Source of the DNA: a virus
Taxonomy: Duplodnaviria > Heunggongvirae > Uroviricota > Caudoviricetes
Length of the DNA stretch: 64,000 nt
IMG/VR virus record: IMGVR_UViG_2724679236_000008
Reading direction: 5' to 3' (one strand)
The notes beneath the pieces were generated by a model. That model worked only from the letters and a program-made list of their open reading frames with translations, did no database searches and was not told the DNA's origin. Of this stretch, positions 40,882-55,171 are shown in pieces. Within the stretch, counting starts at the first letter, position 1; the number at the start of each line of letters is the position of its first letter. The translations under genes and the position numbers were made by a program.

Positions 40882-43800
40882 ATGAATGACGTTACAGTTG
40901 TCACATCGGTTACTTACCCATCACCCGAGTCGTTGGCTCTGGTGGCTGATGTGCAATACCACGAACCATATCTGTCAGCCGCGCTAAACCGAAAATTCAG
41001 GGGAATTGTTGACCCGGGATTTTATGCTGGTTTCTTGCCTAAGCCTGGCGGTGGGATGAACCTGTTAATCACCTCAGTGGATGGTGATAAAACCGCTGGC
41101 GCGGCGTCAGTGGATATTGGAGAATTCTACCAAGTAACTATTCAGCACCGTAAGGATATTTCTCTTGCACTTAGCGCAGGTAAGAAATATGCAATTGTGC
41201 TGAAGGGAAGATACCTCCTTGGAGAGGATACCTATCAGGTTAATACCGCGTCACATATTCATGCGGCTGAATTTATTGCCAGAACTTATACCGATTCATA
41301 TCAGTTAGGAGATGGGGAGTTACTTGTTTGTACGGTAAATATCCCTGCTGGCGTATCTGCCATTACCCAGGAGATGATTGATACATCTGAGCGTATCAAC
41401 CGCACGATCGGCATTGAAATATCAGACTCTGTAACCAGCACCAGAAGTGATGTTGCGGCAAGTTCGCTGGCAGTTAAAAAAGCCTACGATCTGGCGAAAA
41501 GTAAGTATACGGCGCAGGATGCAAGCACAACGCAAAAGGGATTAGTTCAGCTCAGTAGCACAATTGACAGCGACAGCGAAACAATGGCGGCCACCCCTAA
41601 AGCCGTTAAGTCTGTAAAAGAACTGGCTGATACCAAAGCGCCAATAGAAAGCCCGAATCTGACAGGGAAACCAGGTGCCCCGACTGCGGCCCCAGGTACA
41701 AACAGTAATCAGATCGCGAATACAGCATTTGTTCATGCAGCTATAAGCGCGCTTATCAACGGCGCCCCGGGAACACTGGATACGCTGAAAGAAATTGCTG
41801 CTGCTATCAACAACGATCCGAAGTTCAGCACGACTATCAATAATGCGCTGAATCTTAAGGCTCCTTTAGCAAGCCCTGCATTCACCGGAATACCTACCGC
41901 GCCTACAGCACCGCAGGGTACAAATAATACACAGATAGCAACGACTGCTTATGTTAGGGCGGCTATTTCCGCATTGGTCGGTTCATCTCCTGAAGCTCTG
42001 GATACTCTGAATGAGTTAGCTGCGGCGCTTGGCAATGACCCGAACTTTGCGACAACCATGACCAATGCACTGGCAGGGAAACAGCCTCTTGATGCAACCT
42101 TAACCGCGCTCGCTGCCCTTGCGACTGGTGCAAATAAACTGCCTTATTTCACCGGTAAGGATACGGTAGCGCAGACTGATTTAACGTCAGTCGGTCGCGA
42201 TATTCTGGCTAAAACAAGCACACTGGCCGTTATCCAATACCTTGGTTTAAGAGAACTTGGCACAAGCGGTGAAAAGATCCCCCTGTTGAGCACGGCTAAC
42301 ACATGGAGTGCACGCCAGACTTTCAACGGTGGGATCACCGGGGCGCTGACAGGGAACGCCGACACCGCGACGAAATTAAAAACAGCACGGAAGATTAATA
42401 ATGCCCCGTTTGACGGTTCAGCTGATATTAATATCAACACTCTGGTGTCGCGTGGTCGCGTAACGGCTCTGGAGGCGAATGCACAGGGAGCATCAGGGAT
42501 TCAACTGTATGAGGCCTACAATAATGGCTATCCTTCTACCTATGGCAATGTGCTTCACCTTAAAGGTGCCACCGCTGCTGGCGAAGGTGAGTTATTCATT
42601 GGCTGGAGTGGCACGAGCGGTGCCCATGCGCCAGTACATATTCGTTCGCGGCGGGATACTGATTCTGCCAGCTGGTCAGAATGGGCACAAATTTATACGT
42701 CAAAAGACTCAGTTCCTGGTGTTAATACCAAAGGCAATCAAGACACGACAGGTAATGCTGCCACCGCCACAAGATTGCAGACGGCGCACACTATCAACGG
42801 CGTCTCGTTTGATGGTTCTGAAGATATTGAACTAACGGCGGAAGATTTAAATCTCGAACAAACAGTAGAGTTAGCTGCTGGAGCATTGCAGAAAAACCAG
42901 AACGGCGCAGATATTCCAAACAAAGATAAATTTACGCAAACAATAGGTGCTTGCCGCTCTTTTCATAGCTCTATCAGCACAGGTGCAGGAAACTGGACGA
43001 CGGCGCAATTTATTGAATGGCTGGAATCTCAGTGGGCCTTCAATCATCCATACTGGCTGTGTAAATGCTCATGGTCATACGGCAATAATAAAATTATTAC
43101 TGACACCGGATGTGGACTTATTCACCTTGCGGGTTGCGTTATTGAAGTTATGGGCAATAAAGGCGCCATGACCATTCGTATAACCACACCGAGTACCTCT
43201 AGCAGTGGTGGCACCACTAATGCGCAATTTATATATATTAACCACGGTTCAGAGTATTTACCTGGCTGGCGACGTGACTACAACACGAAAAATCAGCAGG
43301 CCGCTTTTGCTTTAGGGCAAACAGGAAGCACTGTCGGAAATGATAAAGCTGTTGGCTGGAACTGGAATAGCGGGGTATATAACGCAAATATTGGTGGCGC
43401 ATCGACATTAATCCTCCACTTCAATATGAACGCGGGTAGCTGCCCTGCTGTACAGTTCCGCGTAAATTATAAGAACGGTGGTATTTATTATCGTTCAGCG
43501 CGTGATGGTTATGGCTTCGAGGCTGACTGGTCAGAGTTTTACACCACAACCCGAAAACCTTCAGCGGCAGATGTTGGGGCATATACTAAAGCGGAATGTA
43601 ATACGCGGTTTATTACAGGTATTCGATTAGGTACAAAATCATCAGCGCAAACATGGAATGGTCCTGGCTGGGGCGATAAATCAGGTTACGTTGTTACAGG
43701 TTCCGTTAACTCAAACAAAGATGAACTTATTGATACAACACAGGCAAGGCCAGTGCAATATTGTATCAATGGCACCTGGTATAATGCGGGAAGTATTTAA
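40882..43800 (+). CDS. tail fibre protein S: constant N-terminal part plus currently expressed variable C-terminal cassette (972 aa from ATG 40882)
   Basis: SD AAGGAT before ATG 40882; repeated collagen-like PTAP/GTN modules; C-terminal half shares repeated modules with the inverted cassette at 44779-46683. Confidence 0.8.
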   Translation: MNDVTVVTSVTYPSPESLALVADVQYHEPYLSAALNRKFRGIVDPGFYAGFLPKPGGGMNLLITSVDGDKTAGAASVDIGEFYQVTIQHRKDISLALSAGKKYAIVLKGRYLLGEDTYQVNTASHIHAAEFIARTYTDSYQLGDGELLVCTVNIPAGVSAITQEMIDTSERINRTIGIEISDSVTSTRSDVAASSLAVKKAYDLAKSKYTAQDASTTQKGLVQLSSTIDSDSETMAATPKAVKSVKELADTKAPIESPNLTGKPGAPTAAPGTNSNQIANTAFVHAAISALINGAPGTLDTLKEIAAAINNDPKFSTTINNALNLKAPLASPAFTGIPTAPTAPQGTNNTQIATTAYVRAAISALVGSSPEALDTLNELAAALGNDPNFATTMTNALAGKQPLDATLTALAALATGANKLPYFTGKDTVAQTDLTSVGRDILAKTSTLAVIQYLGLRELGTSGEKIPLLSTANTWSARQTFNGGITGALTGNADTATKLKTARKINNAPFDGSADININTLVSRGRVTALEANAQGASGIQLYEAYNNGYPSTYGNVLHLKGATAAGEGELFIGWSGTSGAHAPVHIRSRRDTDSASWSEWAQIYTSKDSVPGVNTKGNQDTTGNAATATRLQTAHTINGVSFDGSEDIELTAEDLNLEQTVELAAGALQKNQNGADIPNKDKFTQTIGACRSFHSSISTGAGNWTTAQFIEWLESQWAFNHPYWLCKCSWSYGNNKIITDTGCGLIHLAGCVIEVMGNKGAMTIRITTPSTSSSGGTTNAQFIYINHGSEYLPGWRRDYNTKNQQAAFALGQTGSTVGNDKAVGWNWNSGVYNANIGGASTLILHFNMNAGSCPAVQFRVNYKNGGIYYRSARDGYGFEADWSEFYTTTRKPSAADVGAYTKAECNTRFITGIRLGTKSSAQTWNGPGWGDKSGYVVTGSVNSNKDELIDTTQARPVQYCINGTWYNAGSI
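42230..42255. other. cix-type inversion crossover site (left) inside the tail-fibre gene
   Basis: tatccaatacc-TT-GGTTTAAGAGAA; right half is the exact inverted copy of the site at 46714-46739; identity with the inverted right-end sequence begins here. Confidence 0.5.
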
Positions 43801-43802
43801 TT

Positions 43803-44336
43803 ATGATGCATTTAAAAAATATTAAAGCAGGAAACCCCAAAACCGTAGAACAATATGAATTAACACGACAATTTGGCGTTGTCTGGTTGTATTCTGATGA
43901 CGATAGAAACTGGTATGAGGAACAGAAAAACTTTCAGGGAGATACAATAAAAATTGCTTACACTGCCGATGGAATCATTGTGGCTGTAGATAAGGATGTA
44001 TCGACAATTAATCCCGAAGGTTTAAGCGTTGTTGAGGTTCCTGATATTACAGCCAATAGGCGGGCCGATATTTCTGGTAACTGGCTGTTCAAAGATGGGG
44101 CGGTGATAAAGCGAACTTATACCGGAGAAGAACAGAGGCAACAGGCGGAAAATGAGAAGCAAAACCTGTTACAACTCGTCAGGGATAAAACTCAGCTATG
44201 GGATTCTCAGCTACGACTTGGAATTATTTCTGCTGAGAATAAACAAAAATTAACCGAGTGGATGCTCTACGCACAGAAAGTTGAATCCATAGACATCTCT
44301 ATCCTACCAGTAACATTTCCCGAACAACCAGAATGA
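43803..44336 (+). CDS. tail fibre assembly chaperone (U-type, 177 aa)
   Basis: Follows tail-fibre gene; C-terminal ENKQKLTEWMLYAQKV is similar to the C-terminus of the convergent paralog at 44364-44777. Confidence 0.65.
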   Translation: MMHLKNIKAGNPKTVEQYELTRQFGVVWLYSDDDRNWYEEQKNFQGDTIKIAYTADGIIVAVDKDVSTINPEGLSVVEVPDITANRRADISGNWLFKDGAVIKRTYTGEEQRQQAENEKQNLLQLVRDKTQLWDSQLRLGIISAENKQKLTEWMLYAQKVESIDISILPVTFPEQPE

Positions 44337-44340
44337 GAGA

Positions 44341-44366
44341 AGGCCCGCATCGGGCCTTAATTTTTA
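44341..44366. terminator. bidirectional terminator between the convergent chaperone genes
   Basis: AGGCCCG-CATC-GGGCCT followed by TAATTTTT. Confidence 0.55.
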
Positions 44367-44777
44367 CTCTGGTTTTTGTGGCCATTCTGGCTTTGCCGTA
44401 TCCACGCGGCTGAGCAGAACGCTGTAACGTTCCCAGGATTCCAGTTGGCTACGCTCCTCATCCGTCGCCATATTCAGTCTGACAGCTCGTTCCAGTGGCA
44501 ATATGATAGACTCCGCTTCTGTCAGAAGCTTAGATTTTTTCCTCTCCGCTTGCCAGATTAAGTCAGCTTGGGTTGGTGGTTCTGGTTCCATTAAAACTGG
44601 TTGACCGTATTCATTTGAATTGATTTTTTTACCTTCTGATTGTTTATCCAGGAGATAATGATACCAGCGGTCTGATATTTCAATAGCATCATCAGGCCAT
44701 GCACCATTAATATCATAATCGCTTTTTAGATTATCATCATAAAAACCATTTGTTGACGGGCTGTAATAAATTGTCAT
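44364..44777 (-). CDS. alternative tail fibre assembly chaperone (inverted-orientation copy, 137 aa)
   Basis: C-terminal [19 protein letters not shown] parallels the plus-strand chaperone; directly downstream of the inverted fibre cassette. Confidence 0.6.
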
Positions 44778-44778
44778 A

Positions 44779-46683
44779 TTAGTAACCTATAGCTGTCCAG
44801 TACATATTGCCGTTACCCTCACTGTTAAATTTTGTTCCGGTTCTGGATAGTGAGTTAACAGCAATGCTGTAGTCAAAACGACCATGCGCGTTAGTGATTG
44901 TTATGCTTGTACAGGCAGAGGGAAAAGCTATTGGAAATGTTAACCCTGCTCCAGCATTAGAAATATATCCCCACTGCGTAATAATTCCTGTAGAGACATC
45001 TTTATGCCAGCCATTCGCCGCTTTGAACGCGGTATTTTTAGCCTGATAACGGGAGTCAAAATTACCGTAATCTGACGGGTTAACACGCCCACTAATATTC
45101 AGTAGTTTATTACTTTGAATACTTCCACTCGTAAAGCGGAAAACATGGGCATTGTTAGCATAAACATCAAGAACACCATCGCCATTTTGCTTTAAACCAG
45201 TATCACCATCACCCAGAACAATGGAGTTACCTCCTAAAGCGTTTGCCGTTCTTATACCAAGTGCGCCGTTCAACTGGCCGCCAGATAACGGCAATGCCCC
45301 AACTTCAGCGGCAGTAGGTCTAATATGCGAACTGTAAATTACATAAACCGTTCCATCAGTCAGGCCTGTCGGTTTATTCGCTGTATAAGTTGGTGATGTA
45401 TGAATTTGTACAGTGGCATCCTTTGTATAATCCCACTGGATATTAACACCCGTGGCGTAATTACCTATTTCTACATAAATGTCATAGGTATCACCGGATG
45501 TATTCACCCATGCAAAATTAGTAAATCCTGATGATGTCCGCCGCCATAATGCACCAGTGATGCCTTTAGGGTTTCCATTGCCAGCACGTAAAACAAGTTC
45601 AGATATACCCGCCTGCTGCGGGGAACCGACATTATATCCAGCACCACCAATCAGGCTTACATAAACCACGGAACTGGCCTGTGGCATAGTTACAGTCGCC
45701 AGTTTGAACCATCCTGCACCGCCATTAAAGGATATGGTTGTTGAATTTGTTGTCCCGATGTTGCGCAGGAATAATTTTTTATCAGGAATATCTGCACCGT
45801 TCTGGTTTTTCTGCAATGCTCCAGCAGCTAACTCTACTGTTTGTTCGAGATTTAAATCTTCCGCCGTTAGTTCAATGTCTTCAGAACCATCAAACGAGAC
45901 GCCGTTGATAGTACATGCTGTCTGCAACTTGGTCGCTGTCGCTGCATTACCGGTAGTGTCTTGATTACCTTTTGTATTCACACCAGGCAAATCTATATCG
46001 GCTGAACCATCAAAGGATACACCACCTATGTTTATTGAACTTGCTAATTTCGTTGCTGTTGCTGCATTTCCTGAAAGGCTTGAAACAAACTGATGTGAGC
46101 AGTAATAACCACGTCCATTTTTAAAATCCAGAATGGTTTGAGTATTTGTACTTTCTGCTACTGGATCTGTGGCCCCCCACTTATAGGTGGCTTGACCAAC
46201 GGTATAGTCAGTAGTTGGAACAATTACGTTCAAGCCCTCCTCAGCAAATATCTTGATAGGAAATGCTCTGGCTTCAACGTAAAATACACTACACAAATCG
46301 TCATCTTTCACACTTGAAATAATCGAGTGTATAGCTCGCTCAGCAGTAGAATATATTGAGAAAAAACCAGCCGCATATGAACCGCGATCAGACCAACCGC
46401 CAGGCATAACAAACCCATTAAATTCACAATTATTCATGGCGTATCCGCCAGCTGAGGAATAAGTAGTTATCACAACTCGTGAGGCTAATTCATCGGTACT
46501 GCCTCCAGATCGGCGAAAGACTATAGGATACCACTTACCGCTTACTGCATTTGCAGGCGCTGAAAAAGTGTATTTTCGCATCCCTTTTTTATTGTCTATT
46601 TCGCTTTTGCTGTAAACGTCCAGATCTTTAGGAGTCNNNNNNNNNNAAGTCTGGCGTGCACTCCATGTGTTAGCCGTGCTCAA
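44779..46683 (-). CDS. silent alternative tail-fibre C-terminal cassette (no own start; expressed only after inversion); contains an N10 gap
   Basis: Open frame continues upstream to the cix site; N-terminus [11 protein letters not shown] identical to S residues at 42290; shares the [18 protein letters not shown]...[31 protein letters not shown] module with S. Confidence 0.6.
46637..46646. other. assembly gap (10 N)
   Basis: Literal nnnnnnnnnn in sequence, inside the inverted repeat of the invertible segment. Confidence 0.99.
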
Positions 46684-46713
46684 CAGGGGGATCTTTTCAC
46701 CGCTTGTGCCAAG

Positions 46714-46739
46714 TTCTCTTAAACCAAGGTTTAGGATTG
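46714..46739. other. cix-type inversion crossover site (right), overlapping the 3' end of cin
   Basis: TTCTCTTAAACC-AA-GGTTTAGGATTG: two imperfect inverted 12-bp half-sites around a 2-bp core, same architecture as gix/hix sites. Confidence 0.55.
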
Positions 46740-47291
46740 AAATGATGACGCAGGAAACTTTTTATAAAGCGTGGAAACAGCAACATCATAGATGATTGCA
46801 ACCTGCTTACGGGGGATGCCATTCTCCAGCAATCGACGCATTTGCTGCCATGTTTCTTCCGGGTATTTAGGTCTGCGGCCTCCTATTCGACCTTCTGCGC
46901 GAGCTGCATCAAGTCCAGCGCGTGTACGTTCAACGATAAGCTCGCGTTCCATTTCTGCCAGTGCCCCCATTACGTGAAAGAAAAAGCGCCCCATTGGTGT
47001 ACTGGTGTCGATGGAGTCAGTGAGACTCCGGAAGTTAATTCCTCTGTCACGTAGCTCTTCCACCAGCACAACCAAGTGACGCATGCTGCGCCCAAGGCGA
47101 TCTAACTTCCATACGATCAGGGTGTCACCTCTGGAAAGCATACGCAAAACCTTTTTTAGCCCTGGGCGTTCAGCCTTTTTGCCGCTCGCCTTATCCTCAA
47201 AAATTAGCTCACATCCTGCGCTTTCAAGAGCGTTTCGTTGTAAAGCAGTGTTTTGTTCATTTGTTGATACGCGTACATAGCCTATTAGCAT
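46731..47291 (-). CDS. cin: Cin/Gin/Hin-family serine DNA invertase (186 aa)
   Basis: MLIGYVRVSTNEQNTALQ (catalytic Ser), resolvase/invertase catalytic domain and C-terminal HTH; adjacent to invertible tail-fibre segment. Confidence 0.9.
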   Translation of the reverse strand: MLIGYVRVSTNEQNTALQRNALESAGCELIFEDKASGKKAERPGLKKVLRMLSRGDTLIVWKLDRLGRSMRHLVVLVEELRDRGINFRSLTDSIDTSTPMGRFFFHVMGALAEMERELIVERTRAGLDAARAEGRIGGRRPKYPEETWQQMRRLLENGIPRKQVAIIYDVAVSTLYKKFPASSFQS

Positions 47292-47702: not shown

Positions 47703-47727
47703 CAACAAATGACCGGTTGAGAAGTTA
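47703..47727 (+). promoter_or_regulatory. late-promoter-like motif CAACAAATGACcggttgAGAAGTTA
   Basis: Same AACAAATGAC core as 697 and 32123; 40 nt upstream of GTG 47769. Confidence 0.35.
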
Positions 47728-47768
47728 CTTTGCATACCATTACCTCCTGACAACGTAGGAGGGAACTT

Positions 47769-54968: not shown

Positions 54969-55171
54969 CAGGAATTGGCATAGAATTGATTGTTCAAATT
55001 TCATCCATCACATAGACGACTTCATGTTATTTGCCTGATAATTATGGCTTTAATAACCCATGTATATCTTTTGGGTTATATTCTTATCTTTAACAAGGTT
55101 ATAAGAGCGACAATGATAAATTTATCACTATCGCTCTTATAACTCTTTGTTAGCTATAGCTTTAAACAAAT

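Follow-up and report, generated by a model that had tools for sequence, protein, structure and literature searches.

The locus considered here raises a plain question: when a prophage carries two sets of tail-fibre genes pointed towards each other, can it exchange one for the other, and if so, by what means? The DNA in question (hereafter the window) is the whole 64,000-nucleotide stretch of IMG/VR record IMGVR_UViG_2724679236_000008, and the locus occupies positions 42230-46739 within it. We are confident that these positions constitute the C-segment of a P1-like IncY plasmid prophage, that is, an invertible tail-fibre switch of the P1 type, with a serine invertase, Cin, and a pair of crossover sites, cix. 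The mechanism of such a switch is textbook knowledge from phage P1. What is new is only the combination of parts in the second cassette and the splitting of a repeat that in P1 is continuous.

Crossover sites, recombinase and the element that carries them

The initial annotation had placed a 26-bp crossover site at 46714-46739 and its inverted partner at 42230-42255, and both coordinates proved exact. Each site agrees at 26 of 26 bases with its counterpart in P1 (NC_005856), the left one (TTATCCAATACC-TT-GGTTTAAGAGAA) with cixR and the right one (TTCTCTTAAACC-AA-GGTTTAGGATTG) with cixL. In both, 12-bp half-sites surround a 2-bp core, and the cores match; since they read TT on the left (42242-42243) and AA on the right (46726-46727), the two sites are in inverted orientation. 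The left site lies inside codons for ...QYLGLRE..., and the outer half of the right site overlaps the stop codon of cin. A search of all 64 kb, by a scan for the core pattern and a scan of half-site distance, gave no credible cix-like 26-mer beyond these two. The third best, at 55084-55109 (TTATCTTTAACAAGGTTATAAGAGCG), has mismatches at 7 of the 24 half-site positions and is probably a chance match.

From the sites, the inverted repeat extends into the segment. Its arms are perfect over 148 bp (42239-42386) and have diverged by about 42430; at the outer end they differ only at 42230, 42231, 42236, and 42238, all within the outer half-site. This puts the start of identity 3 bp outside the core, a minor correction to the earlier claim of a start exactly at the core. 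The left arm (block A, 42232-42430) encodes the first ~64 amino acids (aa) common to both cassettes. In the window as given, the repeat continues for 91 nt at 98% identity and stops at a run of 10 N (46637-46646). In the otherwise identical plasmid pEA4_97 (considered below), this run is not a 10-bp gap but 112 bp, belonging to the alternative cassette and to the inner portion of the right repeat arm. The extra 102 nt amount to 34 codons and leave the reading frame undisturbed. It had been left to the filling of this gap to show whether the inverted repeat would hold up; with the gap filled, the repeat lengthens from 91 nt to 199 nt (at 91%), and the segment, first put at about 4.5 kb, has a true length of about 4.6 kb.

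The gene next to the right-hand site, cin (46731-47291, minus strand), encodes a serine DNA invertase of 186 aa, 183 of them identical in P1 Cin (98.4%). The protein carries the Pfam domains Resolvase (PF00239, E = 5e-51) and HTH_7 (PF02796, E = 2e-17) and, as read from its translation, an N-terminal YVRVST motif with the presumptive catalytic serine (MLIGYVRVSTNEQ), the same as in P1. The inversion enhancer of P1 is Fis-dependent, and a Fis-bound cis enhancer is predicted here at 47202-47273 (minus strand), inside the 5' part of cin. All 72 bases of this recombinational enhancer are those of the 72-bp feature annotated in P1 as 'enhancer of Cin-mediated C-segment inversion'.

The arrangement around these elements is again that of P1: R, the constant part of the fibre gene (Sc), cixR, a cassette, a chaperone gene, a second chaperone gene, a second cassette, cixL, and cin. 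Two convergent fibre cassettes and two chaperone genes inside the segment had been proposed from the start, and open reading frames (ORFs) at 42244-46725 bear this out. As far as sequence can tell, then, the P1 Cin/cix system is present with all its defining features.

What sort of element carries this segment? About 6.7 kb around it match, at 100%, plasmid pEA4_97 of Escherichia albertii BIA_4 (NZ_CP117679.1), a circular IncY plasmid of 97 kb. Compared base by base over 12.8 kb, the two differ, besides the N-run, at a single base: position 45615 is G in the window, within a Gln codon on the minus strand, and A in pEA4_97, where the codon becomes a stop. Another 9 kb, from a different part of the window, contain one mismatch. 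The single difference at 45615 indicates that the window comes from a sibling of pEA4_97 and not from that record itself. Genes follow one another as in phage P1 (tail tube, R, S, U, U', cassette, cin, lydC, lydA, lydB), and the window also contains a C4 antisense RNA with its a1/b1 target, at 30330-30415 and 30483-30535 (minus strand), the hallmark of P1 immunity ImmI. Gene order and C4 RNA together identify the window as a P1-like plasmid prophage; from its resemblances it appears to be an IncY prophage of E. albertii, near-identical to pEA4_97. Downstream of the C4 region, the annotation of pEA4_97 lists Icd-like and KilAC antirepressor genes.

Inversion of the segment

If the system operates as it does in P1, Cin would bind both 26-bp cix sites, one of which lies within fibre gene S and one at the 3' end of cin. 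Helped by the enhancer inside cin, it would cut both 2-bp cores, rotate the strands, and rejoin them, inverting about 4.6 kb. The only promoter, LPs, upstream of R, and Sc itself would stay in place. Because these are fixed, inversion would decide which C-terminal cassette, accompanied by its own chaperone gene, is joined in frame to Sc. The present orientation would give a fibre of 972 aa with a tip homologous to P1 S' and Mu S', and the inverted orientation a fibre of 1136 aa with an extra domain of ~215 aa and a different tip.

LPs, the late promoter of the R-S-U tail-fibre operon, is at 40387-40405 (plus strand; AAGTTACTTCTCTTACAAT) and agrees with the promoter annotated in P1 at 18 of 19 bases. 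Inside the segment, a scan for sigma-70 promoters found fewer sites than in shuffled sequence and is therefore uninformative. Between the convergent chaperone genes, a consensus scan (and only that) found a GC-rich hairpin at 44340-44358 (AAGGCCCGCATCGGGCCTT, then a T-run), which is likely to be a terminator for whichever half of the operon is read. The 26 nt that hold LPs (40380-40405) recur as a direct repeat, at 77%, at 47715-47740. The second copy is upstream of a lydA-like holin gene, where P1 has the late promoter LPdar.

The segment of the window was flipped in silico, the N-run having been filled from pEA4_97. Intact fusions resulted both ways: S with 972 aa as the segment now lies, and S' with 1136 aa once it is inverted. 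In p06-3542, another plasmid of E. albertii (NZ_CP034163.1), the flanks are 97-98% identical to those of the window and in the same orientation, but window positions 42232-46737 match, at 96.8%, on the opposite strand. The junctions are CAATCCTAAACC-TT-GGTTTAAGAGAA and TTCTCTTAAACC-AA-GGTATTGGATAA: at or beside the core, the outer half-sites have swapped partners, which is what exchange between cix and cix should produce. Here the long cassette is the one fused to Sc, in a protein annotated at 1136 aa, and the short cassette sits silent beside cin. Both orientations exist in nature. We infer that Cin is active in this element.

Several observations weigh against a switch in working order. The two isomers were seen in different plasmids rather than in the reads of one culture. 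The five plasmids closest to the window (96.6-100%) all share its orientation. At the counterpart of window position 45615, pEA4_97 has a premature stop that breaks its silent cassette into ORFs of 390 and 242 aa, with no coding sequence listed there, so the cassette may be under weak selection in that lineage. Finally, the junction sequence fits the action of Cin and homologous recombination within the 148-bp perfect repeat equally well.

The uniform orientation and the stop codon speak for a frozen relic. On that view, the parts look intact, but inversion has ceased in this lineage; the silent cassette is cargo undergoing decay, and the flip in p06-3542 records one old event. Compared with P1, however, there is essentially no sign of decay in Cin, either site, or the enhancer, and the silent cassette is intact both in the window and in p06-3542. 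Moreover, assembly gives one consensus orientation even from a mixed population. On balance, we consider loss of the switch improbable. The ambiguity of the junctions bears on a different question, whether the segment inverts mainly through RecA-type homologous recombination between repeats of 148-199 bp, with Cin contributing little. A perfect inverted repeat of 148 bp is long enough for RecA, and the product would have the same sequence as that of Cin. But a dedicated invertase adjoins the segment, the sites and enhancer are perfectly conserved, and in the literature on P1, inversion is Cin-dependent; a predominant role for RecA seems very improbable. It is harder still to credit a multi-site shufflon of the type of the p15B Min system, with more crossover sites inside the segment and more than two fibres. 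A second inverted-repeat pair does lie inside (42715-42924 and 45778-45987), but the best 26-mer within that internal module has mismatches at 11 of the 24 half-site positions. A Min-type shufflon was rejected, as only two cix-like sites occur in 64 kb, none of them in the module.

The expressed and the silent cassette

Taking the segment to be a two-site Cin switch, one may ask what each orientation offers the phage. The fibre operon begins with R (40436-40870, plus strand), an ORF of 144 aa in the same position as P1 R, encoding a tail-fibre structure or assembly protein. Next comes Sc (40882-42243, plus strand), the constant N-terminal part of fibre gene S, which ends inside cixR. Over 454 aa, its protein is 93.6% identical to P1 Sc, and it contains Pfam Phage_fiber_2 repeats. 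BLAST alignments of Sc positions 41676-42074 with an E. coli P1-like plasmid, NZ_CP150020.1, overlap one another. This suggests that the number of Sc repeat units (the b1/b2 repeat elements of P1) varies among P1-like plasmids.

The variable cassette now fused to Sc, Sv (42244-43800, plus strand), completes an S protein of 972 aa. The initial annotation had recommended comparison with P1 S/Sv' and the fibres of Mu, and the comparison is informative: the cassette, 518 aa from GLRELG, is a homologue of P1 Sv' (88.8% identity, without gaps and with differences evenly spread) and, in its distal 320 aa, of Mu S' (80.4%). The first 217 aa have 89% identity to both P1 repeat copies. Among solved structures, the cassette matches PDB 8ju3, a Mu S/S' construct, with E = 6e-180. 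Its assembly chaperone, U (43803-44336, plus strand, 177 aa; Pfam Caudo_TAP, E = 4e-34), is likewise a homologue of P1 U' (79.7%) and Mu U' (80.2%). By homology, therefore, the present fibre corresponds to S'/U' of P1 and not to S/U, and the window is, in P1 terms, in a C(-)-like state.

In the literature on the host range of S', this fibre of P1 requires lipopolysaccharide bearing O-antigen, and it allows transduction of Shigella flexneri 2a and 5a and of E. coli O3 (bioRxiv 10.1101/2022.07.24.501295). By analogy with P1, the two fibres of the present element would confer different host ranges.

The silent alternative cassette (44779-46725, minus strand) is another matter. With the gap filled, it comprises 682 aa from GLRELG and would give a fibre of 1136 aa after inversion. 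The initial annotation had described the two cassettes as asymmetric and mosaic, differing in length and content. So they are: 518 aa against 682 aa (fibres of 972 and 1136 aa), with parts matching P1, P2-like phages, and Mu-like phages. The silent cassette resembles P1 at aa 1-64 and 280-372 only. Between these stretches lies block B' (45988-46636, minus strand; 653 bp, of which 4 are inside the N-run), encoding a domain of ~215 aa. Its protein is 69.6% identical to fibres of P2-like phages, and the block recurs at 97.5-99.6% identity in P1-like plasmids of E. coli that have other distal parts. Residues 324-594 have about 90% identity to Mu-like Yersinia phages, and the tip is a Pfam Gp53-like_C domain. 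Compared with solved structures, this tip gives weak matches to R-type pyocin fibres; the strong match among the cassettes is that of the present cassette to 8ju3.

The chaperone of the silent cassette, U' (44364-44777, minus strand), is shorter than usual at 137 aa. It belongs to Pfam Caudo_TAP (E = 4e-30), but only its C-terminal 62 aa resemble U of P1 and Mu (81-82%), and BLASTP of U' against the window's own U gave no match. Neither the distal part of the silent cassette nor its chaperone as a whole is thus of the P1 Sv/U type: the shared blocks and the last 62 aa of the chaperone are all that match. It follows from these comparisons that the silent cassette is evidently not P1 Sv.

How widespread is it? 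Within the plasmid collection, the complete silent cassette was found in 6 plasmids only. Five are from E. albertii, and the sixth, judging from the overlap of the match lists, is also. No catalogued phage carries the cassette at a coverage of at least 80%. We conclude from the matches that it is a mosaic whose whole combination appears to be absent from catalogued phages.

Apart from block A, the two cassettes have one other stretch in common. The initial annotation was right that they share an internal module but put its size at 60 aa, whereas the measured size is 70 aa. The left copy of this module, block C (42715-42924), agrees with the reverse complement of the right copy (45778-45987) at 188 of 210 nt, with a longest perfect run of 80 bp. 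These 210 nt, identical at 90%, encode 70 aa with 3 differences, and BLASTP extends the similarity to 93 aa at 81%. Where does such a module come from? In P1, the two cassettes share an inverted repeat of about 600 bp that is continuous and nearly perfect. The present cassette keeps the whole of this P1-type stretch. In the silent cassette, B' (653 bp) has taken the place of the middle part (block B, 284 bp), with A (199 bp) and C (210 bp) remaining on either side. What in P1 is one repeat of ~0.6 kb is here split by non-homologous inserts of 284 and 653 bp, and the shared module, as the alignments have it, is the distal remnant of the P1 repeat, separated from the rest by a domain replacement.

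Block C carries a fibre repeat motif that includes FDGSxDI, and mosaic breakpoints have been found in it or beside it. In pRHB27-C04_2, an IncY plasmid of E. coli that shares cin and blocks A, B', and C at 97.5%, the breakpoint falls inside block C, at about 45835. In NZ_CP150020.1, it comes directly after the FDGSxDI motif.

Possible exchange at block C and comparison with related elements

Two repeat pairs are thus nested within the segment: block A, beside cix, and block C, with its 80-bp perfect run, 284 or 653 bp further in. Perhaps, then, there is a second level of inversion, in which homologous recombination at block C re-pairs B and B' with the two distal tips. If this were true, one locus could, through the inversion at block C and that by Cin, produce four types of fibre. 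A flip at block C would create two new junctions; these were constructed, and the plasmid collection was searched for them. Both were found in one plasmid, NZ_CP150020.1 (E. coli, P1-like; positions 27500-37500). There, B is linked to the other tip and B' to the S'-like tip, the reverse of the window, in which the S'-like tip follows B and the other tip follows B'. As a clean reciprocal product of the flip, the plasmid had to be rejected: its expressed copy is without half of block C, and its centre is only 82-85% identical. For this reason, it points to an exchange of modules over evolutionary time rather than a recent flip. A second inversion at block C is unlikely, and its recurrence through a RecA-type process is possible but unsupported.

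How does the switch compare with others already known? P1 is the nearest relative in mechanism, with identical cix sites and enhancer, Cin at 98.4%, Sc at 93.6%, and one pair of cassette and chaperone homologous to Sv'/U'. It differs in that the Sv/U cassette of P1, encoding the K-12-type fibre, is absent here, its place taken by the longer mosaic cassette with its 137-aa chaperone, and in that the segment is longer here (about 4.6 kb) than in P1 (4.26 kb). In the G segment of Mu as well, a serine invertase swaps S/U for S'/U', with about 80% identity between the present cassette and Mu S' and U'. Unlike Mu, with Gin and gix, the present element has a recombinase and sites of the P1 type, and its Sc, also of the P1 type, is much longer.

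The Min system of p15B has six crossover sites, as opposed to the two found here. Its invertase and fibre modules are nonetheless related, according to notes in the P1 record. D6, P7, RCS47, and the IncY plasmids of E. coli resemble the present element in the position of their cix sites, in the invertase beside the segment, and in having variable cassettes, but differ in the distal parts of the cassettes and in the chaperones (the comparison at the level of cassettes left out D6, P7, and ETEC1722). Among P1-like plasmids, the C-segment is already on record as a hot-spot of variation (PMC6906374).

The mechanistic weight of the present case is small, the switch being the textbook one of P1 with sites and enhancer unchanged. 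Its use is modest: it indicates that this group of P1-like plasmid prophages of E. albertii pairs an S'-type fibre with a second fibre that is not the K-12-type S, and the fibre content of this group is relevant to predicting or engineering the host range of P1. It also illustrates the exchange of fibre domains at conserved repeat motifs.

Some features elsewhere in the window may be mentioned. ARAGORN finds two tRNA genes, at 8196-8271 and 9233-9319 (minus strand), a tRNA-Met (CAT) and an 87-nt tRNA-Ser (TGA); of these, Rfam at its gathering score confirms tRNA-Met (CAT) only and not tRNA-Ser (TGA). Neither a sok/hok-type module nor an Ail/Lom gene is known to be part of the P1 reference genome. 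In the region of the window at 26086-26259 (minus strand) and about 26584-27099, Rfam identifies a sok antitoxin RNA, and a module of the hok/sok type at this site is likely. Adjoining the sok locus, in the annotation of pEA4_97, is a gene for an outer-membrane protein of the Ail/Lom family.

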